A stretch of DNA of 64,000 nt from an uncultured Pseudomonadales bacterium (GTDB lineage: Bacteria; Patescibacteriota; Microgenomatia; UBA1400; CAYNFZ01). The notes under the pieces were generated by a model. That model was not told the origin of the DNA. It searched no databases and saw only the letters and a list, made by a program, of their open reading frames with translations. The translations under genes were made by a program, and so were the position numbers. Location: NCBI GenBank assembly GCA_964398525.1, contig CAYNMS010000001.1, positions 6,569-70,568 of the forward strand, given 5' to 3'. Shown here in pieces: positions 270-54,705 of the stretch (positions within the stretch are counted from its first letter, which is position 1; every line of letters begins with the position of its first letter).

Positions 270-769
270 TACCCCTTAGGTGGCTTTAACTTTTTCCCTA
301 GAAAAACCAATTTCATTTGCTTCAATCTCTCAGTTATTCTTTCCACCTCATTCTCTAACTCTTCTCTGGTTACACCTTTAGTTTTAGCCTGGTTCCAGAC
401 AACTTCCATTGTCTTTTCAAACCTATTGTTAAAACGCGTGTTCAAATCTTTCCATGCTATCCCTTCCAAACTCTGGGCAACCTCTTTTCGATATTCCAAT
501 TCGCCAATTTTCATCAAAAATGCCAAGCCTGGATAACCTAAATACCCTTGCCAATATGTTCCGTTATCATTTGTCATGATTGCTTGCTTCATTTCGTCCC
601 AAAACACCATATAAAACTTATTCCTACTACTCGAAAACACTCTGGCCGATACGACGCCTTCATTATCTTTATCATCTACTTCTACTCGCCCGTCAGCCAC
701 TGCTCCCAAAGCCTCATAAATTTTTATAGCTGGCGGCAATTTCCACTCCATTACCAAACAACATATCAC
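266..769 (-). CDS. hypothetical protein (167 aa)
   Basis: Complete ORF on the dominant coding strand with purine-rich codon usage like neighbouring minus-strand genes. No motif recognised. Confidence 0.5.
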   Translation of the reverse strand: MICCLVMEWKLPPAIKIYEALGAVADGRVEVDDKDNEGVVSARVFSSSRNKFYMVFWDEMKQAIMTNDNGTYWQGYLGYPGLAFLMKIGELEYRKEVAQSLEGIAWKDLNTRFNNRFEKTMEVVWNQAKTKGVTREELENEVERITERLKQMKLVFLGKKLKPPKGY

Positions 770-1129: not shown

Positions 1130-4050
<2,921 letters not shown>

Positions 4051-6237: not shown

Positions 6238-7905
6238 TCACTTTTCTCTCACATCCTCTGGCAATTCCTTCACTTCATACTTAGCCAATATCTTTCGTAT
6301 TTGATCTAATGTTTTCTCATTCCATTTACTGGACAAAAGCCAACTAAGATCTACTAAATCTATCGGATCAAAAGCAACTCCCAATTCATTCAACACGTTA
6401 CTCAATTCTTCCATGTTTTCAGCCCCAAGTAACTCTTGTTTTCCGTCTGATTCGGCTTCTTTTTCCTCTTTTGTATCCATCGGTATCTCCAGTGCACCAT
6501 CTTCCTTTGATTCCTCACTGCTCTCAGCTTCACCACCAAGCTCTACTTGATCCTGTTCTAGCGACGAAGCCGCTTCTTCGGCAACTTCTTCACTTTCTAT
6601 TTTTTCTCCTTCAAGTAATTTCTTCACCTGAGCTAGACCATCCATTAATTCGCTTTCTCCATCACCTTTCACCCTCTCTGCCAAAGTATCCAACCAACCA
6701 ACCAAAGCTTCCATATCAACCCCCTCCAAACCCCCTCGCATTATTTTTTGAACAAAAATTCGCAAACTAACTTTTTCATATCTTTCTAATCCGTCCAAGC
6801 CATCTATCTCCTTTACGCCTTCCCCTAATCGATCAATCAATTCCTTTTTTTTCAATTCCTCAAACTCTTTTTCTTGCTTAATCACCTCTGCCTCACTCAA
6901 ATCCACACCATCCTCCATCCTTTCCTTCAATTGCTTGAGTGCAAACAATACCTCTATCACACTCTTTTCATCTACACCGTACGTTTCATTCTCAATTCTC
7001 CTTATCCAATCATTAACATCACCAATGTTGGCCGTCTCTGGGCTGGTTAGCAGTTGTTTAATCTGGTTCACTCCAATTTCACCAAAAGCCTCGTGCATTT
7101 CTCTTGCACTCTCAATCCCTTGCTTACTCACTCGCCCCCACACTCTTTCTGGATCTTTTTTCCATTTATCCCATTTTTGCTTCGCCTTCTCAACCAACCC
7201 TTTGCCTTCCGATGCTGTTTCTTTGGCTTTGTCAACAACACTTGAAGTTTTTTGCTCCCACCCTGACCTTAAATCTATGGCTTCCTCCACAACAGGTGTC
7301 GTTTTTTCCAGCTGTCTCTTGATTACTAACAAATCTCCAGCTTTTTTACCCCCTGCCTCTCCCGCTTGTTTCATCAAATCGTCCACAATTGCATTTACCG
7401 ACTCAATCGTCTGACTTGTTGCCTCACCTTTTTCCAACACCGCTCTGACCAAATTTCTCTGCTCAGCCAAACCAATACTCTTAGTAGCACCTAAAGCCTG
7501 CTTCTTAATTCTTGCTGCTAATTCATCAGGACTCGGTTGTTTTTCCTCTTGTGCCTTCAATTTCCCTAACTCTTGATCCGCCCCTTCCTTCCACTTCTGC
7601 CAATTTTTCTCTTTAAACTCTTTCGCTTCCTCGCTCAGTTCACCTACCGAATCTATCAATTTCCCCTGATCATCACTTTTTTTAAAACTTGCTTCCACCT
7701 GGTAATCCTGATTCCTCGGCGGCTCGCCCTTGTTTATTAGCTTTCTCACTACCCTCCCCCACAAACCTTCTTTTGGTGCTTCTGGTGTCGTTGTCTCTCT
7801 TGCAGGCGCTAAACCAGCTTCTTGCAATTCTCCCACCTTTTTACTCAACTCCTTTGCACTAGGTGGAACTCCCTCTACCGCATGCTTTATTACATCAATA
7901 TCCAT
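6238..7905 (-). CDS. large acidic E/K-rich low-complexity protein (555 aa), probably coiled-coil or disordered
   Basis: Uninterrupted 1.67-kb ORF on the coding-dense strand. Composition dominated by E, K, L, G. No TM or signal peptide. No enzyme motif recognised. Confidence 0.55.
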   Translation of the reverse strand: MDIDVIKHAVEGVPPSAKELSKKVGELQEAGLAPARETTTPEAPKEGLWGRVVRKLINKGEPPRNQDYQVEASFKKSDDQGKLIDSVGELSEEAKEFKEKNWQKWKEGADQELGKLKAQEEKQPSPDELAARIKKQALGATKSIGLAEQRNLVRAVLEKGEATSQTIESVNAIVDDLMKQAGEAGGKKAGDLLVIKRQLEKTTPVVEEAIDLRSGWEQKTSSVVDKAKETASEGKGLVEKAKQKWDKWKKDPERVWGRVSKQGIESAREMHEAFGEIGVNQIKQLLTSPETANIGDVNDWIRRIENETYGVDEKSVIEVLFALKQLKERMEDGVDLSEAEVIKQEKEFEELKKKELIDRLGEGVKEIDGLDGLERYEKVSLRIFVQKIMRGGLEGVDMEALVGWLDTLAERVKGDGESELMDGLAQVKKLLEGEKIESEEVAEEAASSLEQDQVELGGEAESSEESKEDGALEIPMDTKEEKEAESDGKQELLGAENMEELSNVLNELGVAFDPIDLVDLSWLLSSKWNEKTLDQIRKILAKYEVKELPEDVREK

Positions 7906-7928: not shown

Positions 7929-8375
7929 TTAATCCGTCAACAATCCCTCAAGTTTGAGTAGCCACTTCTTTCTCTCTACTCCCCCAGAGTAGCCCCCCAA
8001 ACCACCACTACTAGACACTACCCTATGGCACGGCACCACAATCGGCACCTTGTTGGCTCCACATGCTCCCGCTACTGCCCGCACCGCCAATGGCTTACCC
8101 ATTCTTTTGGCTAGCCCCTTATAACTCACCGTTGTCCCGTAAGCCACTTTCATCAGCTCCTGCCATACTCTCTTCTGAAACTCTGTCCCTTCAAGCTTTA
8201 CTTCCATTTCAAATTCCCGTCTCTCGCCTCTCAAATACTCCTCCACCTGCTCCCCAATCTTCGACAACTTATCACTCTGCTTTAGTTCATTAATCCAATT
8301 CACCCCCACCAGTTTGCCTTCCTCCGATAAAACTTCTACCCCACCCACCAAAGTCTTTATTCTTTCAACTTTCAT
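7929..8375 (-). CDS. ogt: methylated-DNA--protein-cysteine methyltransferase (O6-alkylguanine-DNA alkyltransferase)
   Basis: Active-site PCHRVV motif, preceded by the TVSYKGLAKRMGKPLAVRAVAGACGANKVPIVVPCHRV helix-turn-helix region typical of Ogt/Ada-C. Confidence 0.85.
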   Translation of the reverse strand: MKVERIKTLVGGVEVLSEEGKLVGVNWINELKQSDKLSKIGEQVEEYLRGERREFEMEVKLEGTEFQKRVWQELMKVAYGTTVSYKGLAKRMGKPLAVRAVAGACGANKVPIVVPCHRVVSSSGGLGGYSGGVERKKWLLKLEGLLTD

Positions 8376-12848: not shown

Positions 12849-13070
12849 TCACTCACCCCTATTTATTCTCAAGCTCAGCTCATTAACTACCATATCCAGT
12901 ACCACCACTGCCCCTCCGGCTATCATCAACACCTCATTTGCCTTACCTTCCAATTCCGCCACTAGCCCAATCAACAAACTCATTCCCCCAAAAATCTTAG
13001 CTCCTAAAGATAACCACACATAATCCGCATTCTGTTGGCAGTATTCATATATCTCTTCAGCTCTTCTCAT
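12849..13070 (-). CDS. hypothetical small protein (73 aa, one hydrophobic segment)
   Basis: ORF immediately downstream of ruvB, abutting with 0 nt gap. No motif recognised. Confidence 0.35.
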   Translation of the reverse strand: MRRAEEIYEYCQQNADYVWLSLGAKIFGGMSLLIGLVAELEGKANEVLMIAGGAVVVLDMVVNELSLRINRGE

Positions 13071-14111
13071 CTACAAAAGCCTAAGCTTTTCATCTCTCTG
13101 ATCCGCTATCCCCAAATGCTCATAAGCTTTCTCTGTCACTATTCTCCCCTTAGGTGTGCGCTTCAACAGTCCCGCTCTCATCAAAAACGGCTCATACATG
13201 TCCTCTATAGTAGCTACATCCTCGGCGATACTTGCCGCTAGTGTCGATAGCCCGACCGGTCCTCCACCATGCTTTTCTACAATGGCCGTCAGTAGCATTC
13301 GGTCATTTCCATCCAGTCCAATTTCATCCACCTCCAACAACTTAAGAGTTTTCTCTACCACATCTCTAGTTATCAATTTATGCTTATACACCTGGGCGAA
13401 ATCCCTCACTCTCTTTAGTAGTTTCAACCCAATTCTAGCCGTTTTCCTCGATCGTGCCGCCAGCATCAACGCCGCTTCATCCTCAAACTCCAACATCAGT
13501 TTCTCCGCTGCTCCCATAATAATTTCCGCTAACTCTCCATCACTGTAAAAGTCCAACCGGTGCACCACTCCAAATCTGTCTCTCAATGGTGAAGAAATCT
13601 TACCTACTTGCGTCGTCGCCCCCACAATCGTAAATGGTGCCAGATCAAGTCTCACCGTTCTTGCCCCTGGCCCTTTCCCCAACACGATATCCAAAGCAAA
13701 ATCCTCCATCGCCGGATACAGCGTTTCCTCCACCACCTTGTTCAACCGATGAATTTCATCAATAAAGAGTACATCGCCCCGCTCCAAGTTCGTCAAAATA
13801 CTTGCCAAATCCCCCGCCCGCTCCATCGCCGGCCCGCTTGTCACTCGAATATTTGCCCCCATCTCCTTGGCAATAATGTGAGCTAAAGTAGTTTTGCCCA
13901 GTCCCGGTGGCCCGTAAAACATCACGTGTTCAATCGGCTCACTCCGGCTCTTGGCCGCTTCCAAAGCAATTTTCAAAGCCTTCTTGACCTTTTCCTGACC
14001 TCGAAACTCACTCCAACTTCCTGCCCGCAAAGACTGGTAAAGCATTTCTTCTTCATCCTCAAGAGGCTCGACCACTCTCACCTCATCACTTTGAACCATT
14101 CTACTTGCCAT
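13071..14111 (-). CDS. ruvB: Holliday junction branch-migration ATPase RuvB
   Basis: Walker A GPPGLGKTTLA, Walker B LFIDEIHRL, sensor and arginine-finger regions, and a C-terminal winged-helix typical of RuvB. Confidence 0.95.
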   Translation of the reverse strand: MASRMVQSDEVRVVEPLEDEEEMLYQSLRAGSWSEFRGQEKVKKALKIALEAAKSRSEPIEHVMFYGPPGLGKTTLAHIIAKEMGANIRVTSGPAMERAGDLASILTNLERGDVLFIDEIHRLNKVVEETLYPAMEDFALDIVLGKGPGARTVRLDLAPFTIVGATTQVGKISSPLRDRFGVVHRLDFYSDGELAEIIMGAAEKLMLEFEDEAALMLAARSRKTARIGLKLLKRVRDFAQVYKHKLITRDVVEKTLKLLEVDEIGLDGNDRMLLTAIVEKHGGGPVGLSTLAASIAEDVATIEDMYEPFLMRAGLLKRTPKGRIVTEKAYEHLGIADQRDEKLRLL

Positions 14112-14117
14112 AATGTC

Positions 14118-14169
14118 TACTTACTACTTACTACTTACTACTTACTACTTACTACTTACTACTTACTAC
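14118..14169. repeat. heptanucleotide tandem repeat (TTACTAC)x7 (GTAGTAA on the ruvB-sense strand)
   Basis: Seven perfect 7-nt units read directly from the sequence, starting 7 nt upstream of the ruvB ATG (14111). They lie within the divergent region shared with the + strand GT-C gene at 14300. Confidence 0.9.
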
Positions 14170-14299
14170 ACGAAACATACCCCAAAACACCCTAGAGAGC
14201 AAGTCACTCCACATGGCTCTACTTTCTTATTATTCCCTCATTGATACCATTCTTACATCCAAGTAAAATCCCATTACTCAATCTTTTTTCTCTACCCAA

Positions 14300-15637
14300 T
14301 TGAATCGAATCTCCTCTCCACTTCACACCCTCCTCTCCCTCCTGGCTTTTCCTAAAGGCAAATCTCTCTCCCTTCTTTTAGCCCTCCTCCTGATTACTTT
14401 TCTCTTCTGGTTCCTTCGCCTCTATAACTTCGACCAACTCCTCACCTTCCACATCGACCAAGCCCAACATTTCTTCGAAGCCAAAGAAATGGTCGATACC
14501 CGGACTCCCAAACTGATCGGCCCTATTGTCACCACCCGCATGGTAGACGGCCGTGGCTTCTTTATCGGACCACTTTATTCCTATCTCTTGGCCATTCTAG
14601 GCAGCATTTTCAGCTGGAACATTATCGCCATTACCAAATTTCTTCTATTAATGTGGTGGTCTAGTGCTTTACTGCTCACCGTTTGGGTCGCCCGCCAACT
14701 TAATTGGTCAATTGCTCTATTGGTTTATCTACTCCTCGCCACCCATCCGACCCTTGTTGGTTATAGCCACATGGTCTTAAACCCCAACTTCCTCGCTTTG
14801 TTCTCCATTGGCTTTTTCTTTTTCCTCTTTCGCGCATTCTCCCACCCCTCCAAAGCCAATTGGTTCCTGACTGGCCTATTTACCGGTATTTGTCTGAGCT
14901 TTAACTACTTAGTTCTTTCCTATTTTGGCCTCATCGCCCTTGTCTGGCTTTACCAAATCTATCGTCGCCGTGCCCGCATTATCGACCCACTTGTCATCGG
15001 ATTTGGCATCATTCTTGGCAATCTGCCTTTCTTTATCTTCGAACTCCGGCACAATTTCTACAATCTCCGTACTATCCTTGATCTTGGTGTCAGTCCTGGT
15101 GGTGGAGCCAGTCTTATCGCCGGCTACACCCTCTTTGCTTTTCTTCCCCTAGCTGTCTGGATTTTTGCCTACTTTGCTGAATTTCTTCGCCGTAGAATCG
15201 GTTTTTTGGTTCCCCTCCTCCTCACACTTATCTTAGTTTTTTATTTCCAAACCTCCACTACTTATAGCCGTACCAGAGGTATCGGTATGCCCAAAGGCTG
15301 GAGTGTTCCCCTGCAGCAACAACTCGCCTACCAAATTTGCCAAGACAATCATGGCGAACCTTTCGAAATCGCCGCCATGGTCACTGCCGATATTCGCGCT
15401 ATGGATCTTCGCTGGTTTGTCCAGCAATGCGCCCAACCTGCCGGCTTTACACAGTATCCCTTCGTCGACACGCTTTATTTAGTCGACCAGGGTTTCTTAG
15501 CCCAAGGCATCGAGCCAGGCAATTGGGAAATCGCCAGTTTTGCCCCTTTTGCAGTTAGACAAAAGCAACAACTCAATCAATACCTCTGGTTTTACAAACT
15601 CGAACGCCTAAAACCTTCCTCCTCTCCCGCTCTCTGA
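14300..15637 (+). CDS. polytopic GT-C-fold membrane glycosyltransferase (ArnT/PMT/GT39-83-like)
   Basis: 445 aa with about 10-12 TM helices. Acidic first-loop motif (HIDQAQHFFEAKE) and large C-terminal periplasmic-type domain, the architecture of undecaprenyl/dolichyl-phosphate-sugar-dependent transferases. It interrupts the ruvA-ruvB gene pair on the opposite strand. Confidence 0.5.
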   Translation: MNRISSPLHTLLSLLAFPKGKSLSLLLALLLITFLFWFLRLYNFDQLLTFHIDQAQHFFEAKEMVDTRTPKLIGPIVTTRMVDGRGFFIGPLYSYLLAILGSIFSWNIIAITKFLLLMWWSSALLLTVWVARQLNWSIALLVYLLLATHPTLVGYSHMVLNPNFLALFSIGFFFFLFRAFSHPSKANWFLTGLFTGICLSFNYLVLSYFGLIALVWLYQIYRRRARIIDPLVIGFGIILGNLPFFIFELRHNFYNLRTILDLGVSPGGGASLIAGYTLFAFLPLAVWIFAYFAEFLRRRIGFLVPLLLTLILVFYFQTSTTYSRTRGIGMPKGWSVPLQQQLAYQICQDNHGEPFEIAAMVTADIRAMDLRWFVQQCAQPAGFTQYPFVDTLYLVDQGFLAQGIEPGNWEIASFAPFAVRQKQQLNQYLWFYKLERLKPSSSPAL

Positions 15638-15640
15638 CTC

Positions 15641-16195
15641 CTATCTCCCCAACTTCTTAATCACTTCTCTCACTTTCTCTTCCTCTCTCATACCAGCAGG
15701 TAAACCTCGAAGCACTTCCTCCACTTCTCGTCGTCCAAACCCCATACTCATCAACGCTTGAACCAGCTCTCCTCCATCTGTCTCCGTCAAATCTAGTTCT
15801 GCCAAATCTCCCAACTTACTCTTCAGATCCACTATTATCCGTTGTGCGTTCTTCTTGCCAATTCCCGACACGCTGGTAAAAAATCCTACATCTGCCATTG
15901 CCACCGCCTTCTGCACTTCTTCAGCTTTCCCTCGATTCAACACATTCATGGCCATTTTTGGCCCCACCCCTGAAACAGAAATTAACATCTGAAATAACTT
16001 TAGTTGTTTCTTGTCCCTAAACCCATAAAGCGTCAACTCATCTTCTTTGACATATGTGTGCACATAAACTTCCAAACCTGCTCCTTTCTCCAATCCCTCA
16101 GATACCATCACCACTTTATATCCCACCCCACCTACCATCAGTATCAAAGACTTCTCCGCCACCTCATATATTTCACCTTTTAAAAATCCAATCAT
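15641..16195 (-). CDS. ruvA: Holliday junction DNA helicase RuvA
   Basis: N-terminal MIGFLKGEI...GVGY OB-fold start, HhH motifs (GVGPKMA, GIGKKNA) and a C-terminal RuvB-interaction domain. Confidence 0.9.
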   Translation of the reverse strand: MIGFLKGEIYEVAEKSLILMVGGVGYKVVMVSEGLEKGAGLEVYVHTYVKEDELTLYGFRDKKQLKLFQMLISVSGVGPKMAMNVLNRGKAEEVQKAVAMADVGFFTSVSGIGKKNAQRIIVDLKSKLGDLAELDLTETDGGELVQALMSMGFGRREVEEVLRGLPAGMREEEKVREVIKKLGR

Positions 16196-16229: not shown

Positions 16230-16700
16230 TTGACCAACACTTCCGCCAGAGGTTATAGTTACCCTATGCTCAAAATCTATCGTTTCCTTGCCGTCATCAT
16301 GCTCATCTCCGGAGCCATTATGTTCTCCGCTCTCCTACAAACCTTCGATGCACTCCCTCCCCGCCTCGTTCAATCCCTCATCAATTCTCTAGATCACCGC
16401 CGCCTCCGTGAGCCTACCCAATCGCAAATCTACGATATGTTTAATCAATCCAAACTCTGCCGCCAAAACGCCGACTGTAGTTACTCTGTTACTCGCCAAA
16501 CCCATTGCCAAATAGAAGTCGCCAACCGCTATTACCTCGAAATCCCCGAAGATCAAGAATTTGTTTTCAACCCCATCGATTGCCCCACTCTACCTGAACG
16601 CGACTTTGACTACCTCACTTGCTCTAAAAATATCTGCACCAAACACAATCTGCCCTTTAAGGATTTCTTCACTCGTCCCAACCCCTCTCCCCAGCCCTAA
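16230..16700 (+). CDS. small Cys-rich membrane-anchored or secreted protein (156 aa)
   Basis: N-terminal hydrophobic anchor (FLAVIMLISGAIMFSALL), then a soluble region with 6 Cys (CRQNADCSY...HCQ...DCP...CSKNIC). Wedged convergently between ruvA and ruvC, with a 4-nt overlap on the ruvC stop. Confidence 0.4.
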   Translation: MTNTSARGYSYPMLKIYRFLAVIMLISGAIMFSALLQTFDALPPRLVQSLINSLDHRRLREPTQSQIYDMFNQSKLCRQNADCSYSVTRQTHCQIEVANRYYLEIPEDQEFVFNPIDCPTLPERDFDYLTCSKNICTKHNLPFKDFFTRPNPSPQP

Positions 16701-17188
16701 GTCGACCTTGTCCTCAATTGACTGTTGATAAAAAAATGCGTCAATGCCGCCGCCATCGCATCCGCCGCATCATCAGATTTTGGCACAGCTTTCAACTTCA
16801 ACTGGCTTTTTACCATCATCTGCATTTGCTTTTTGTCAGCCTGGCCATAGCCGGCTATACATCGCTTTATCTGTAGTGGCGTGTAGTTATAAGCCGCTAC
16901 CTTCTTTTTTACTAAAGCTACCAAAATTACCCCCCGAGCCTGCCCCACTCCCATCACCGTCTTGGCATTTTTAAAAAAGTACAACTCCTCCACTGCCGCT
17001 GCATCTGGATGATGTTTATCCACCAACTCACTAATTTGATCAAAAATCTCCTCTAGTCTTACATTCAATGAGTCTGTTGGCGAAGTCTCCAAACACCCGC
17101 ACTCCACCAAATTTTGCCTAGATCGATTTCCTTCCACTATCGCCCAGCCCATCCTCCCAAACCCCGGATCAATTCCCAATACTTTCAT
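16697..17188 (-). CDS. ruvC: crossover junction endodeoxyribonuclease RuvC
   Basis: N-terminal MKVLGIDPGFGRMGWAIVEG with catalytic Asp, conserved E/D/D carboxylates, RNase H-like fold, 163 aa. Confidence 0.88.
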   Translation of the reverse strand: MKVLGIDPGFGRMGWAIVEGNRSRQNLVECGCLETSPTDSLNVRLEEIFDQISELVDKHHPDAAAVEELYFFKNAKTVMGVGQARGVILVALVKKKVAAYNYTPLQIKRCIAGYGQADKKQMQMMVKSQLKLKAVPKSDDAADAMAAALTHFFINSQLRTRST

Positions 17189-42098: not shown

Positions 42099-43895
42099 CT
42101 ACACAATCCTCTTCAACTCTTCTGCGCTGGTCGCCTGTTCTGGATCTTTATCATCTCTAAACTTAACCAGTCTTGGAAATCTCAATGCCAATTTTGCCGT
42201 GTGTATCGGAGATTTAGTAATCTCATCCGCCGCTATCTCCACAACTAGCCCTGGAGCCAGCCACACATCCGCAGCTAAATTCTTGACCACCTCATATTCC
42301 TTCGGTTTTTGATTTACCGCCAGCTTGTCGGCTCTAGACTTCATCTCTCGCCATTGTTCATCTGTCAACCCCGTCCCAATCTTAGACAAGCTATAAAATT
42401 TACCTTCTTCAAATCCGTCTCCCTCCCCTCTTACTCCTACCAAAAACGCACCAATCCCAAACCTCGATCTTTTACCCCTCCCCGCGTAATACCCTAAAAC
42501 CATTGGGTCTACCGTATCCGATAATTTAGCCGCCGAACCCTCGATTTCTTTAAACTTCACCCAACTCCAACCTCTTCTGCCAGGCTCATAGACTCCATCC
42601 CACTTTTTCACCATCGCCCCTTCTAAGCCCTCAGCCAATTGATGGGCATGATACTCTCTTATCGCCTCTGCCCTTTCGGTTACCAACACTTCAGGCACTT
42701 CTAGTAACTCTCCATTAACCACTGTCTCTTCCAATATTTTTCGTCGCTCACTAAAAGGTAGTTTCACCAAACTCTTTCCATCTTTGTACAAAATGTCATA
42801 TACAAAAAACTTAATTGGTATCTCTTTAGCCGCTGCCGCAATTCCGTGTTTTCTCTTCCTCTGTATTGTCTCCTGAAACGGTCGCAGTGCCCCGGTTTCG
42901 GGATCAATCCCCACTCCCTCACTATCCAAAATCACCTCTTCTGCTTTCAAGTACTTCCCCACTTCCATTAGTTCCGGAAACATCTCACTCGTCTCATCCA
43001 AGTTTCGTGTAAAAGTCCTCACTTCCTCATTCATTCCCAGGTTTAATTCCAATAAGCTATCTTGTTCTTTCTTTGTTTCTTCTCGACCCATTCCTCCTCT
43101 TCTAAAATGTATCTGAACTCTTGTTCCGTCATACTTAGGTTCCACTGCCACTTTTCCCATCTTCTTAACCATCTCATCCGCACTTTTAAGTCTTTGTGCC
43201 AGTGCCGGAATTACCGGTACTCCCAATTCCACCTCCACTCTCTCTTCAACCTCATCACCAGAAAACTGTTTTACTAGTCTTGCAATTTTACCGATATCCG
43301 GGGAAATTTGATACGCCCCCTCCAATTGTTTCCGTTTCTCCTTTCCGCCAGTCTCCATCCATGAAAGCGCATCCAGAATCGTCATATCCGAAAATCCAAG
43401 TCTCAATTTCCCCACCACCATCCTGCCTACATACTTACCAGAAATCTCATCCAGCTCCCTAAATAATTCTGCCAAACCTGCTACTTTCCTTTCTTGGCTC
43501 CCCTGCCCCTGATCCGTGGCGATTTCAACCAATCGTTCATAGACATCCAAAATCCCCAACCCATCGCTTTCAGCCATTTCTTGAGAATTTATGTTATCGA
43601 TCTTAAATCGACCCACCACTCCCCCCAAATCACCCAACTTATTATATTCTGCCCTTACCGCTTCTACGTTTAATCCAAACGCCAAGGCTATCGCCCTCAT
43701 CACCATCTTTTCTGCCAAATTAAATTCCAGTCTGTCAAACTTGGGTCTCAATTGCCCCAAGCTCAAATTCACCACTACCGAAATCTCCTCTTCACTCACC
43801 TTGCCAAACAACTCTGCCAACAACGCTGTCATCTCCAGCCGAGAGGGTGTTTTCTCTAACCTCTCAAAATAGGCTGACAATTCACTAAATTTCAT
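42099..43895 (-). CDS. ATP-dependent DNA ligase (archaeal/eukaryotic Lig-I-type with N-terminal DNA-binding domain)
   Basis: Adenylation motif I AVEPKYDGTRVQIH (KxDGxR), downstream nucleotidyltransferase and OB-fold motifs. 598 aa. Confidence 0.85.
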   Translation of the reverse strand: MKFSELSAYFERLEKTPSRLEMTALLAELFGKVSEEEISVVVNLSLGQLRPKFDRLEFNLAEKMVMRAIALAFGLNVEAVRAEYNKLGDLGGVVGRFKIDNINSQEMAESDGLGILDVYERLVEIATDQGQGSQERKVAGLAELFRELDEISGKYVGRMVVGKLRLGFSDMTILDALSWMETGGKEKRKQLEGAYQISPDIGKIARLVKQFSGDEVEERVEVELGVPVIPALAQRLKSADEMVKKMGKVAVEPKYDGTRVQIHFRRGGMGREETKKEQDSLLELNLGMNEEVRTFTRNLDETSEMFPELMEVGKYLKAEEVILDSEGVGIDPETGALRPFQETIQRKRKHGIAAAAKEIPIKFFVYDILYKDGKSLVKLPFSERRKILEETVVNGELLEVPEVLVTERAEAIREYHAHQLAEGLEGAMVKKWDGVYEPGRRGWSWVKFKEIEGSAAKLSDTVDPMVLGYYAGRGKRSRFGIGAFLVGVRGEGDGFEEGKFYSLSKIGTGLTDEQWREMKSRADKLAVNQKPKEYEVVKNLAADVWLAPGLVVEIAADEITKSPIHTAKLALRFPRLVKFRDDKDPEQATSAEELKRIV

Positions 43896-49793: not shown

Positions 49794-50867
49794 TCACAAT
49801 TCAATCACCTTCATCTCTTTGCTCCACACCGGAATCTGTTCATTGTCAGCTGTGGTGATGATTGTTTGCTGTCGCTCCAGTTGTTCCCAAATCAACTGCC
49901 GATGCCCTCTGTCCAATTCCGACATAATGTCATCCAAGAGTAAAATCGGCCTTTCTCCACTCATTTTCTCCACAAATTCCATCGACAAAAGTTTAAGCCA
50001 CAACACCCCCAGTCTCTGCTCACCCCTGGATCCAAACGCCATCAAACTCCTTTCCTTTCCCTTCATCACCTTCTTCACTTCAATATCATCCCGGTGCGGC
50101 CCCACCAAAGTGTAACCGGCTGCCAATTCCTTTTGTTTATACTCCTCCAACCGTCTCTCGCTCATCACGCTCACCTCATAACTCGCACTCAAACCAAATT
50201 CTTTGTAAGTCTGCGTGTGATTAAAATAGTCCACCATCGCCCTCCTCTTCTCTTGCACATAAGTCCCGTTTTTAATTACCGACTGGTCCCAGTATCCCAA
50301 GGCTTGCCTCCCAGTCCTTCCTTCTCTAATCATCTCCAGAATTTTATTCCGTCTTCTCAAAGCATTTCCATAAGCCTTCAGGTTTCTCCCGTACTCGCCA
50401 TCAATCTGTGTCAGCACTTCATCCAAAAACTGTCTCCTCCTGGCCGGACTGCCCTCCACAATTCTCATGTCCTCCGGCCTAAACACCACGGCAAATAAGT
50501 TCTCCATAAACTTACTCCTATTTCTCCCCACTCCATTTACCAAAAATCGCCTTTTATTCACTCTCTTGCCTGCCACTACTCCTCTGGTAATCACAACTTG
50601 TAGCTCAGTTTCCTCTTCCTCTCCATTACTCACCTTTGCTCCCACATGAGCGACCTCTGCTCCAAAGTTCACCATCTCCTCCACTCTTCCCTCCCTAAAA
50701 CTCTCACCGGTGGATACCAACCAAATTGCCTCCAATACATTAGTTTTACCCGCTGTGTTTGGACCCACAATGATATTTGTTCGCTCTAAATTTGCTTCAA
50801 AAGCTACATGATTGCGAAAATTCATCAACACTAGTTTATTAATCTTCATGTGCTTGGATTCTAACAC
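49794..50867 (-). CDS. recF: DNA replication and repair protein RecF
   Basis: N-terminal MKINKLVLMNFRNH, Walker A GPNTAGKTNVLEAI, signature and Walker B (ILLLDDIMSELD). Confidence 0.9.
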   Translation of the reverse strand: MLESKHMKINKLVLMNFRNHVAFEANLERTNIIVGPNTAGKTNVLEAIWLVSTGESFREGRVEEMVNFGAEVAHVGAKVSNGEEEETELQVVITRGVVAGKRVNKRRFLVNGVGRNRSKFMENLFAVVFRPEDMRIVEGSPARRRQFLDEVLTQIDGEYGRNLKAYGNALRRRNKILEMIREGRTGRQALGYWDQSVIKNGTYVQEKRRAMVDYFNHTQTYKEFGLSASYEVSVMSERRLEEYKQKELAAGYTLVGPHRDDIEVKKVMKGKERSLMAFGSRGEQRLGVLWLKLLSMEFVEKMSGERPILLLDDIMSELDRGHRQLIWEQLERQQTIITTADNEQIPVWSKEMKVIEL

Positions 50868-51225
50868 TCCTATCTAATCCGCTTTCTCTCATAATCCTTA
50901 TTCCCTCACCATCCAAGTGTATGCACATCCCTGCAATTAAAGCATTTAACACTACTAGGGTTTTTAGCTCTTCATCAAGATCATTGAATCCAAACCATCC
51001 ATCCCCCATCCGAATTTTGCCAGTCTTCGTTGCTTCTACCGCCAACCTCACTCCCTTTTCAAAATTCAACCCTAATTCTTTTAAACTCTCTCGTTCACTC
51101 ACCAGTTCCACCCAGTCTCCCCACAACAAATACCACTTTCCCAAATCGTTGTTAAACTCCTCATCTTCATAATCTCCAAATATGGCAACCAAATCTCCAA
51201 TAAATTTTTGCTGCCTTTCACTCAT
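50839..51225 (-). CDS. hypothetical protein (128 aa)
   Basis: Complete ORF overlapping recF start by 29 nt and the NUDIX gene end by 8 nt. No motif recognised. Confidence 0.4.
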   Translation of the reverse strand: MSERQQKFIGDLVAIFGDYEDEEFNNDLGKWYLLWGDWVELVSERESLKELGLNFEKGVRLAVEATKTGKIRMGDGWFGFNDLDEELKTLVVLNALIAGMCIHLDGEGIRIMRESGLDRSVRIQAHED

Positions 51226-51652
51226 GCTTTAGTCTAGCCCACTCGTCAACAAACTTTTTCAAAAAACCTCCATCATCCCCAGTCTCCAAACCTCTAAACT
51301 CTTCTGGTCTAACCCACTTCCACACCTTGTGTTCGCTAGAAAGTCTCACTTGTGTTCCGCTTGCTTTTCCCCACCAACCAATTACCACCACCTCTATCCC
51401 CTCAGGCTTACTCCCCATGCTCGACTCCACTCTCAAAGGTTTGATATCACCAATTTCCAATCCTGTCTCTTCTAACACTTCCCGTCTAACACTATCATGA
51501 ATCTCCTCCCCAACTTCTAAATTCCCTCCTGGCAAATCCCACGCGCTTGGCCGTCGACAATCACTATCTTGCCGCTTAAGTGCCAACACTCTACCCTCTT
51601 CATTTACTACCACCACTTTAGAAAAAACTTTTACCTTCTCAAGATACTTCAT
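51218..51652 (-). CDS. NUDIX hydrolase (MutT-like)
   Basis: Nudix box GGNLEVGEEIHDSVRREVLEETGL (Gx5Ex7REUxEExGU). 144 aa. Confidence 0.8.
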   Translation of the reverse strand: MKYLEKVKVFSKVVVVNEEGRVLALKRQDSDCRRPSAWDLPGGNLEVGEEIHDSVRREVLEETGLEIGDIKPLRVESSMGSKPEGIEVVVIGWWGKASGTQVRLSSEHKVWKWVRPEEFRGLETGDDGGFLKKFVDEWARLKHE

Positions 51653-52523
51653 TCTTTCTCCTCTGGCACTTGGGACACCAATATGTTCCCCGCCCTCCTA
51701 GTTTTGCCTTTACCATTTCTCCTCCACACCCTTTTCTCAAACATCTCTCTCCTTCTCTTCCATATGCCAAAAAATGTTCCTGATACTTGCCCCCCATTCC
51801 GGCAATATCTACGTAATTACTATAACTTGCCCCACCTAGTTCAATTCCCTTATGTAGCACCTTTACCATTGCCTCGTGCAATCTTTCCACTTCCTGCTTT
51901 CCCAAATCTTTAGCTGGCTTAAACGGATCAATTTGGGCCAACCACAACGCATCGTTGGCATAAATATTTCCCATCCCTCCCATCTTGGCTTGATCCAAAA
52001 TCACCAATTTAACTGGCCTTGTAGATTTGCCTAACACCCCTCCCAAATACTCCACCCCAAACCTCTTATCCACCACATCCGGCGGCAATTGCCTCCGAAG
52101 GACCAAGAACTCCTTACCACTTACCAATCTCCACCAGCCAAACACTCTCATGTCATTAAAATATAGCCTGGCTCCGTCTTCAAATCTCACTACAATTCTC
52201 GTGTGTGTACTCGGCAGTTTACCCACCCAGTCTCCACTTGGATGTCCTCCCACCACTCTGTCATTACTCTCCTTCTCTACAAATATCAACTGGCCAGTCA
52301 TTTTTAAGTGAATTAACAGGCGCCTGTCTCCAGTCTCAAACTCCACCACAATCATTTTTGCCAGTCTTCCCACGCTCTTTATTTGCTTTCGATTTAGCAC
52401 ATCCAAGCCACTTCTAGCGCTTTTTTCCCGTCTGACCTCAACCTGAGCGATTGTTCTGCCGACAAGTACTTGATCTAACTGCTTGGCAATAGTTTCAACT
52501 TCAGGTAATTCTGGCATCCACAA
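51639..52523 (-). CDS. mutM: formamidopyrimidine-DNA glycosylase (Fpg/MutM; Nei family)
   Basis: N-terminal catalytic MPELPEVETI (Pro2, Glu3), H2TH region, C-terminal CxxC...CxxC zinc finger (RCLRKGCGG...YWCPKCQ). Confidence 0.85.
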   Translation of the reverse strand: MWMPELPEVETIAKQLDQVLVGRTIAQVEVRREKSARSGLDVLNRKQIKSVGRLAKMIVVEFETGDRRLLIHLKMTGQLIFVEKESNDRVVGGHPSGDWVGKLPSTHTRIVVRFEDGARLYFNDMRVFGWWRLVSGKEFLVLRRQLPPDVVDKRFGVEYLGGVLGKSTRPVKLVILDQAKMGGMGNIYANDALWLAQIDPFKPAKDLGKQEVERLHEAMVKVLHKGIELGGASYSNYVDIAGMGGKYQEHFLAYGREGERCLRKGCGGEMVKAKLGGRGTYWCPKCQRRKNEVS

Positions 52524-53697: not shown

Positions 53698-54705
53698 TCA
53701 AAATAGCGCCTCTTGTACACTCATTTCAAATTCATCTGCCGGCAGTCTCTTTATCAAACTTTTAAACCCAAACTTCTCAAACAATGCTACTGTTTCTCTC
53801 TTGTCATAACCAGTCACTCGGCAGTCCTCAAGTTTAAGCTCAATCGGCACTTCCCTCATTATGGTCGCCAATTCCCGGCTTTTAAATGCCAGTTCTCTGC
53901 CCTCTATTAGTTTAGCCACCACCGCCACACCCACTCCCATCTTTAAGGCTATTTCCTTTAACTGCTTTGCCTCAATTTCCTCACTTTCACTCTCAGTTCC
54001 CAACACTTCACTTCTTGCTTCATCCAGTTTGTTATAAACACCCTCTAAATTCTCAAATTTCTTCAGTAACTCTACCGCTGTCTTTGGTCCAATTCCCCTA
54101 ATTCCCGGTATATTGTCACTGCTGTCTCCGGCCAACCCTTTGTAATCTACCACTTGGTCTTTCCTGACTCCCAACTTTTGCTCAACCTCTTCTTCCCCAT
54201 ACATTATCGATGGCTTACTTCTCATTCCAGGAATAAAAACTAACACCTTCTTGTTCTCTACCAACTGAAAAATGTCTTGATCTCCAGTCACAATTACGGT
54301 TTCTATCTCATGCTTGCTTTCGTCTCGTGCTTGCTCAGCTATTGTGCCGATTAAATCATCCGCTTCAAATCCCTTGACTGCAAACATGGGCATGTTCATT
54401 TTCTCCACCACCTCAAAGGCTCTTGGCACTTGTTCCTTAAACTCTTCCGGCGCTTTCTGTCGATTGGCTTTATACTTTTCATAACCATCTTTCCTAAACG
54501 TCGGCCCTTCACTATCAAAACAAATCGCCATGTGAGTCGGTTTCAATTCCTCTATCACCGACAACAATATCGAAGCAAACCCATACACCGCATTTACCAT
54601 CGCCCCGTCAGGCGAAGTCAAATATGGAATCGCATAAAACGCTCTAAAAAGTAGCGAGTGCCCATCAACCAATACCAATCTGTCTTTCTTTTTCTTGTCT
54701 GCCAT
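53698..54705 (-). CDS. stand-alone 5'-3' exonuclease (Pol I N-terminal / FEN-like, ExoIX-type)
   Basis: LVLVDGHSLLFRAFYA start and metal-binding acidic clusters (AFDSEGPTFR, FEADDLIGT, VTGDQDIFQL), followed by a helix-hairpin-helix (GIPGIRGIGPKTAVELL). Confidence 0.85.
   Translation of the reverse strand: MADKKKKDRLVLVDGHSLLFRAFYAIPYLTSPDGAMVNAVYGFASILLSVIEELKPTHMAICFDSEGPTFRKDGYEKYKANRQKAPEEFKEQVPRAFEVVEKMNMPMFAVKGFEADDLIGTIAEQARDESKHEIETVIVTGDQDIFQLVENKKVLVFIPGMRSKPSIMYGEEEVEQKLGVRKDQVVDYKGLAGDSSDNIPGIRGIGPKTAVELLKKFENLEGVYNKLDEARSEVLGTESESEEIEAKQLKEIALKMGVGVAVVAKLIEGRELAFKSRELATIMREVPIELKLEDCRVTGYDKRETVALFEKFGFKSLIKRLPADEFEMSVQEALF

Follow-up and report, generated by a model that had tools for sequence, protein, structure and literature searches.

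The ruvB locus and its microsatellite

The stretch of 64,000 nucleotides (nt) analysed in this study, positions 6,569 to 70,568 of contig CAYNMS010000001.1 (hereafter the window), harbours a perfect heptanucleotide microsatellite beside the start of ruvB, the gene encoding the Holliday-junction helicase RuvB. The gene occupies positions 13071..14111 of the minus strand, and its product of 346 amino acids (aa) displays the Pfam domains RuvB_N (E 7e-76), AAA_lid_4 and RuvB_C. The best match among species-representative genomes (Gottesmanbacteria, Collierbacteria, Daviesbacteria) has a RuvB that is 65% identical to it, and the host, a bacterium known only uncultured, is Patescibacteria / Microgenomates-like. 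Beyond the microsatellite lies a divergently oriented gene (14300..15637, plus strand, TTG start) for a polytopic membrane protein of 445 aa, which was assigned by Pfam and family comparison to the PMT_2 / GT-C-like family and is referred to below as the glycosyltransferase (GT)-like protein. Given the TTG start at 14300, the intergenic region shared by the two genes measures 188 nt (14112..14299); a preliminary description of this DNA had correctly placed the repeat in a divergent region shared with this gene, at a slightly different length of 190 bp.

Within this region a single period-7 array was detected at 14117..14169 by Tandem Repeats Finder (TRF), with 7.6 copies, 100% matches and a score of 106, while the runner-up array of the window attained a score of 56. 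Read in the ruvB sense (minus strand), the tract consists of (GTAGTAA)x7 followed by GTAG, 53 nt in total, after which come a non-repeat linker of 5 nt (ACATT, or ACAUU in the RNA; 14112..14116, minus strand) and the ruvB ATG at 14111..14109, the periodicity stopping 5 nt before the start codon. Both direct reading of the sequence and a scan for Shine-Dalgarno (SD) motifs show this linker to be devoid of such a motif. This agrees with the preliminary description, whose register of the repeat, beginning at 14118, does lie 7 nt from the A of the ruvB ATG.

The tract was characterised by TRF, shuffles, frame analysis, RNA folds and a second allele on contig L097, and it is a rarity within the window. 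When the window was shuffled 30 times with its dinucleotide content preserved, perfect tracts of period 4-9 reached a maximum of 16-20 nt, as against the 53 nt observed. Apart from this tract, (CCAA)x4 at 6690 is the only one of the window whose period is at least 4 and which comprises 3 or more copies. The reported presence of a perfect heptanucleotide microsatellite next to the ruvB start is thereby substantiated, and at 53 nt and 7.6 perfect units the tract has the length and perfection that allow frequent slipped-strand mispairing. No second tandem GTAGTAA array exists in the window, even when 2 mismatches are allowed, and membership of a dispersed repeat family was rejected within these 64 kb, where the tandem form is unique. 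As regards the question of a repeat family, two exact matches were observed on the viral contigs L109 and L110.

Frame analysis confirmed that UAG and UAA are present in every ruvB-sense unit, and because 7 and 3 share no factor these stops close all three ruvB-sense frames. The tract cannot be coding, and a coding role was consequently ruled out. On the plus strand, a small open reading frame (ORF) starting from the ATG at 14113 (22-55 aa, depending on the allele) was also considered; it is fused to the GT-like ORF in no allele. A further local feature is the sequence AAGTAGA ahead of both in-frame ATGs of ruvB (AAGTAGA-CATT-ATGG and AAGTAGA-ATGG; window 14099..14127), which suggests a small local duplication where the repeat meets the coding sequence.

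Copy number differs between strains. A contig from the Joint Genome Institute (JGI) collection (L097; sample 3300009868, 2802 nt), which is independent of the window and represents a different strain of the same species, spans the locus with a tract of 46 nt, or 6.6 units, versus the 53 nt and 7.6 units of the window. The flanks are identical, so that the whole-unit variation between strains proposed in the preliminary description is upheld. The two sequences differ by 33 substitutions, all within 13002..13911 and 32 of them inside ruvB, and not one substitution occurs over the 714 nt of 14112..14825. The single nucleotide polymorphism (SNP) nearest to the tract on the ruvB side is located at 13911, 200 nt into the gene, and the one-unit indel is the sole difference across approximately 900 nt; standing alone in otherwise identical sequence of this length, it bears the signature of a slippage hotspot. 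Approximately 1 kb downstream of ruvB contains one substitution, and the clustering of substitutions in 13002..13911 suggests either a recombination tract or a mosaic consensus. At the codon level, 28 synonymous and 2 non-synonymous differences separate the two ruvB genes, and ruvB is maintained under purifying selection.

The locus was also recovered from Logan contigs, on which exact RuvB and exact GT-like proteins were found in approximately 20 sequencing runs. Periodic sequence of exactly 30 nt terminates 5 of 6 RuvB-side contigs and 10 of 11 GT-side contigs, which originate from different runs. Since the Logan assemblies employ k=31, 30 nt corresponds to k-1, and for a de Bruijn graph to branch in this manner, the samples must contain a tract that either measures at least 38 nt or varies in length. 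The repeat is real in all Logan samples and is not an artefact of one assembly, and the Logan contigs give no copy number. The known copy-number alleles are thus two, each from a short-read assembly. Scans of JGI metagenomes with the GT-like protein or a 20-nt unique flank produced no further spanning allele, a lookup of the window RuvB read from its second in-frame methionine (M5) returned no match, and the RuvB 90% cluster holds the window form and the JGI form only. In the literature searched, the identifiers of the samples are mentioned by no paper.

Predicted promoter and leader, and the reach of unit changes

The window was compared with seven related lineages whose RuvB proteins are 80-83% identical (loci L099-L108). 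A block of the form (G)GGGTAT(G/C/A)(T/A)T was observed 5' of ruvB in the window, L097, L099, L100, L105-107, L108 and L102/103. In the window it comprises a GGGG run (14183..14180) ahead of the predicted -10 hexamer TATGTT (14174..14179, minus strand), and the repeat starts 4 nt past this hexamer. A TTG hexamer is positioned exactly 17 nt upstream of the -10 in five lineages, namely TTGCTC in the window (the predicted -35; 14197..14202, minus strand), TTGTCA in L099, TTGAGT in L100 and TTGAAG in both L105 and L108. As the hexamers of this promoter-like TTGnnn-17 nt-TAT(G/C)TT arrangement are kept while the sequence of the spacer varies, it exhibits the usual conservation pattern of a sigma-70-type promoter.

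The gene order is of relevance here. In the relatives L100, L101, L102 and L105, ruvA and ruvB occupy one strand, with ruvA immediately preceding ruvB. The order in the window is ruvC (16697..17188, minus strand, an ORF identified in the profile scan), a 156-aa ORF on the plus strand, ruvA (15641..16195, minus strand; Pfam RuvA_N and HHH_5), the GT-like gene on the plus strand and ruvB, the opposite-strand genes interrupting the ruv set. With ruvA and ruvB split in this manner by the GT-like gene, ruvB needs a promoter of its own. In L100, a homolog of the GT-like gene adjoins ruvC.

Transcription is predicted to start near 14167, approximately 7 nt past the -10 hexamer and inside the first repeat unit. 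On this prediction the tract would most likely constitute a transcribed, untranslatable and unstructured ruvB leader of about 56 nt in total, and no AUG of the mRNA would precede the one at 14111. We infer the start of transcription and the transcription of the tract, as well as the slightness of whatever effect on expression it may have. A promoter situated within the tract was considered and discarded, as the hexamers TAGTAA and TAAGTA lack the final T of the -10 pattern of this genome, TAnnnT, and the promoter scan found none there.

In 14 out of 53 minus-strand ORFs, compared to 0.7 expected, TAnnnT precedes the start codon at a distance of exactly 6 nt, which indicates that leaderless mRNAs are common in this genome. 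These elements usually follow a G-run and have no conserved -35 (examples are the starts at 17188 (ruvC), 53670, 27243, 24544, 54705 and 11960), and the -10 block of ruvB matches this ggTAnnnT pattern of the genome. In L100, ruvB itself displays a leaderless layout (TATGTT, 7 nt, ATG), and in the window SD-like motifs precede approximately 20 other ORFs. The start of ruvB must be either M1 or M5, the latter being encoded by the second in-frame ATG at 14099..14097. M23 was rejected as a start, given that the residues 'RVVEP' are conserved upstream of it and that M23 is replaced by R or K in L099, L101 and L102.

Repeats in promoters usually switch genes by changing the spacing between the -35 and -10 hexamers. 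Classical contingency loci built on simple sequence repeats (SSRs) include hifA/hifB, where TA repeats lie between the promoters, and neuO, where a heptanucleotide lies within the ORF, and in these unit changes switch expression ON or OFF. The ruvB tract shares with such loci a hypermutable tandem repeat, whole-unit slipped-strand changes and a location in a divergent intergenic region. It differs from them in being placed between the -10 and the ATG, neither inside an ORF nor between the hexamers, and in that the adjacent gene is ruvB rather than one of the usual targets (surface, host-interaction or restriction-modification genes).

This position limits what slippage can accomplish. Because both hexamers lie wholly upstream of the tract, their spacing is fixed and immune to slippage, which argues against the effect on promoter spacing that had been envisaged. 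The tract being outside the ORF, no ruvB frameshift is possible, and the earlier argument that a 7-nt unit is no multiple of 3 has no consequence for this gene. Unit changes would, as the preliminary description had it, alter the length of the 5' untranslated region (5'UTR).

Folding of the 101-nt leader RNA gave a minimum free energy of -4.3 kcal/mol, an empty centroid and a z of 0.79, and the repeat stays unpaired in a 278-nt transcript (z 0.59). The energy required to open the AUG region remains at 4.9-5.4 kcal/mol over 1-14 simulated units, with 6 and 7 units differing by 0.11 kcal/mol. This flat predicted accessibility speaks against the suggested influence on translation initiation. A search of Rfam with the leader returned no match, and an hmw-like hairpin or a riboswitch in the leader was rejected on the basis of the unpaired folds, the lack of an Rfam match and the flat accessibility.

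The divergent promoter, for which a change had also been thought possible, should be unaffected by the tract: for the GT-like gene a promoter is predicted at 14241..14269 (plus strand; TTGATA, 17 nt, TAAAAT; 10/12 in a consensus scan), separated from the repeat by 72 nt and facing away from the ruvB promoter, on whose far side it lies. Since hexamer spacing, reading frame, predicted start-site accessibility and divergent promoter all remain unchanged, ON/OFF phase variation is not supported, phase variation being one of the two roles initially proposed, and is unlikely for a tract that sits neither in an ORF nor in a promoter spacer. All that these models predict from slippage is that an unstructured, SD-less leader would grow or shrink by steps of 7 nt, and graded tuning of expression by copy number is possible.

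Origin of the tract and competing explanations

At the place homologous to the tract, L105-107 read GGGGTATGTTTCGGTGTAGTAGAG, which corresponds to a single-copy GTAGTAG seed. The presence of a single-copy seed in a relative indicates that the repeat grew from native sequence, the seed predating the expansion. Degenerate 7-nt tracts also occupy the ruvB 5' end in L099 (ATGACAG x5.6) and L108 (TGATGAT x4.9); their unit sequences are unrelated and they have decayed to 68-77% matches. In L108 a short upstream ORF (MDHTNGSRIL...; approximately 2415..2510) is homologous to the RuvB N-terminus of L100 (MDDPNTSRIP...; L100 4013..4080), is cut from ruvB by the degenerate 7-nt tract and has a stop codon overlapping the annotated ruvB start, so that a former leaderless ruvB start appears to have been displaced.

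Heptanucleotide tracts were likewise found inside ruvA. Perfect in-frame tracts encode the same RuvA surface loop in L101 ((TCAAGAA)x4; 3490..3517) and L102 ((TCAAATA)x3.7; 3239..3264), and a degenerate one is located at 3369..3399 of L100. A change of one unit in such tracts would frameshift ruvA. The JGI contig L103 starts exactly where the ruvA tract of L102 ends. The RuvA loop peptides of P0157, P0159, P0156 and P0169 resemble translations of such tracts, with QDSRFKIQDS, for instance, corresponding to (TCAAGAT)n. Among other arrays observed in this survey, L100 carries a perfect (CGACATA)x4.4 (2762..2792) in the gap between two convergent genes.

The density of period-7 arrays with at least 4 copies is approximately 12 per 100 kb for the close clade, as opposed to 6.6 for other loci of the Candidate Phyla Radiation (CPR) and 1.4 for non-CPR ruvB loci. 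The statement that such perfect repeats are rare is accordingly valid for the window and fails for the clade, in which 7-nt arrays are approximately 8-fold enriched over the non-CPR controls. This excess is most simply explained by a lineage-wide slippage bias toward 7-nt units. As a separate observation, several ruvB loci of Clostridia contain period-7 arrays of the AATTGTC / AACTGTC type, always of approximately 4.6 copies and 32 nt (L030 73..104 and 474..505; L060 865..896; L065 2389..2420; L083 3732..3764). One of these lies 16 nt upstream of a start codon that has an SD motif, and the group gives the impression of a conserved element and not of a variable SSR.

Based on these findings, we consider it the best explanation, at a probability of about 0.6, that a hypermutable microsatellite has expanded in the ruvB leader without forming an ON/OFF switch, its copy number being neutral or weakly modulatory. 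The clade-conserved promoter (TTGCTC, 17 nt, TATGTT; 14202..14174) would fire inside the first repeat unit, and the ruvB mRNA would open with approximately 51 nt of (GUAGUAA)n, followed by ACAUU and then by the first AUG. Replication slippage would add or remove whole 7-nt units, giving rise to the alleles of 6.6 and 7.6, and each such event would alter only the length of a leader that is SD-less, stop-rich and unstructured. Copy number would then most likely be neutral or nearly so, with at most a slight gradual shift in ruvB translation or mRNA stability, and a weak or neutral effect is what the present evidence favours.

Several observations weigh against this explanation. A 56-nt leader lacking an SD motif is unusual in a genome whose genes are otherwise leaderless or SD-led, and ruvB may therefore be poorly translated, or translated by a mechanism in which the repeats matter. 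A weaker -10-like sequence, CATTAT (14115..14110), overlaps the first ATG. It could give rise to a transcript that is almost leaderless with respect to M5, and the tract would then be DNA upstream of the promoter instead of leader. Copy number is known from just two spanning assemblies, and short-read assemblers can mis-size repeats. Lastly, 7-nt tracts recur at the ruvB 5' end (L099, L108) and inside ruvA (L100, L101, L102), which hints at more than chance slippage.

One competing explanation is a functional rheostat for ruvB expression, in which the number of units in the 5'UTR would set the RuvB level in a graded, heritable and reversible manner and subpopulations differing in recombination and repair capacity would result. 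The nearest mechanistic analogue is the (ATCTTTC)n / (TGAAAGA)n repeat of hmw1A/hmw2A in Haemophilus influenzae, which is transcribed in the 5'UTR and shows, as a precedent, that expression can be governed by a 7-nt SSR lying within the transcript (PMC12721329, PMC2651432). The ruvB tract resembles it as a strain-variable heptanucleotide SSR between promoter and ORF whose changes cause no frameshift, transcription having been measured in hmw and being predicted for ruvB. Such a role would also be in keeping with the one-unit polymorphism between strains, with a repeat standing where an SD motif or a leaderless start is customary, and with the further 7-nt tracts that the clade carries in ruvA and at the 5' end of ruvB. 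However, hmw1A acts through a long hairpin (approximately 10 repeats plus a G-rich segment) and RNase III (PMC12721329), whereas no pairing of the ruvB repeat, and hence no hairpin partner, is predicted in the 101-nt or the 278-nt fold. Predicted start-site accessibility is, moreover, independent of copy number. In a rheostat of the hmw type, output would vary inversely with the number of units. No RNase III gene was found among the proteins scanned in the 64-kb window, a result confined to this window. The ruvB alleles comprise 6.6-7.6 units, compared to at least 11, and up to 38, in natural hmw alleles. Unlike the hmw surface adhesin of a pathogen, the adjacent gene encodes a housekeeping helicase of an uncultured Patescibacteria bacterium and is under purifying selection, and the tracts at the ruvB 5' ends of relatives are unrelated and decayed, as expected of unselected microsatellites. 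We therefore regard a rheostat as rather unlikely.

A second heptanucleotide of H. influenzae, (AACAACC)1-7, is located 13 bp upstream of a gene for a TonB-dependent receptor, and strains carry either 1 or 6-7 units (PMC2651432). It resembles the ruvB tract in lying a few bases before a start codon, and the single unit parallels the seed of L105 as the 6-7 units parallel the 6.6-7.6 units described here; it differs in belonging to a surface receptor gene, and its phase variability was only proposed from genome comparison. The ruvB tract, for its part, is a strain-variable 5'-leader microsatellite, a type that is already known.

Alternatively, the repeat might serve in the mRNA as a binding array for a protein or for the ribosome, exerting translational control with copy number equal to the number of sites. 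HutP-type proteins bind UAG-N4 repeats, and the ruvB leader offers a UAG every 7 nt in a manner reminiscent of HutP sites. A further parallel is provided by direct repeats of the heptamer TAACTGA, known from Beggiatoaceae, Cyanobacteria and some Bacteroidetes, for which such translational control has been proposed in Beggiatoaceae; they form approximately 169 dispersed sets per genome, mostly of 2-6 copies (PMC4679880). As in the ruvB tract, these heptamers lie in forward orientation right before the start codon, at the position of the ribosome-binding site, without an SD motif or predicted structure, and their forward frames are closed by stops while the reverse strand is open (PMC4679880). 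In the closest register, TAAGTAG, the ruvB unit has two stop codons one base apart just as TAACTGA has, TAA-N-TAG here versus TAA-N-TGA, although the two units are identical at only 4 of 7 positions. Unlike the dispersed TAACTGA sets, the ruvB unit is tandem nowhere else in the 64 kb and so forms no dispersed network. At the ruvB site the relatives possess other units (ATGACAG, TGATGAT) or the single-copy seed, so that no motif is conserved, and no protein of the HutP, TRAP or CsrA type was found among the 70 window proteins scanned against Pfam. Overall, a binding array seems distinctly improbable.

The recurrence of tracts across the clade admits a broader proposal, namely that the RuvAB branch-migration genes are recurrent, selected targets of heptanucleotide microsatellites in the Microgenomates-like clade. 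We regard this as quite doubtful; if true, it would mean that these bacteria stochastically vary Holliday-junction processing, with a contingency locus acting on recombination and repair.

Control of the divergent gene, that of the GT-like surface glycosyltransferase, through repeat-dependent changes in its upstream promoter architecture is highly improbable. Surface-glycan genes are typical contingency genes, and this PMT_2 / GT-C-like neighbour, which fits that class, shares the 188-nt divergent region with the tract. Nevertheless, its best promoter candidate (10/12) starts 72 nt past the tract with the ruvB promoter in between, the tract lies approximately 107-159 nt upstream of its predicted transcription start, and no plus-strand frame joins the tract to its ORF in any allele. 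Equally improbable is an assembly artefact in which the tract is real and its length was mis-resolved by the short-read assembler(s): the spanning contigs number only two, de Bruijn assemblers can mis-size periodic sequence if k is shorter than the tract and the k=31 Logan assemblies do fail at it, but ordinary reads exceed both tract lengths (46 and 53 nt), crossing contigs need read-supported k-mers, and the two contigs come from different strains (33 SNPs) and differ by exactly one unit with intact flanks.

Genome context and significance

The assignment of the GT-like protein is based on a weak match of PMT_2 to the window protein itself (E 0.008), with 14 of 16 family members matching and a best value of 5e-10; the family profile matched no solved structure by sequence. 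A public call of this protein (P0121, 382 aa) begins at M64, and this annotation probably lacks an N-terminal transmembrane segment (window 14300..14488). Residues R40, F50 and Q54 are conserved among homologs upstream of the shorter call; the long form therefore holds, and with it the 188-nt intergenic region.

GC skew is extreme, amounting to -0.42 over the whole window and ranging from -0.24 to -0.53 in 4-kb bins. It tracks the DNA strand and not gene orientation, the plus-strand GT-like gene being G-poor in its own sense, and the G-poor strand yields many long spurious ORFs. Strong skew is common to most of the close relatives compared (0.39-0.51; L099, L101, L102, L104 and L105), while L100, L108 and distant CPR show values of 0.16 or less. 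The window is rich in DNA-repair genes, which besides ruvABC comprise those for an Ogt-like methyltransferase, an ATP-dependent DNA ligase, a RecF-like protein, a NUDIX protein, Fpg and a 5'-3' exonuclease (coordinates 7929..8375, 42099..43895, 49794..50867, 51218..52523 and 53698..54705). Neither MutS nor MutL was seen within the 64-kb window.

Work on hypermutable repeats has, to our knowledge, centred almost exclusively on host-adapted pathogens and on surface or restriction genes. The present locus adds, from an uncultured member of the Patescibacteria (CPR), a strain-variable microsatellite adjoining a core gene of recombination, and the anatomy of its promoter, leader and start codon could be reconstructed by comparison with relatives. 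It indicates that microsatellite expansion can push a gene start of the leaderless type away from its promoter. On a practical note, the tract breaks k=31 assemblies of this organism at one point. The lineage-wide excess of 7-nt arrays, some of which lie in ruvA, may reflect the mode of DNA replication or repair in these bacteria, and if copy number modulated RuvB, CPR bacteria would offer a test of whether recombination capacity varies at the level of populations.

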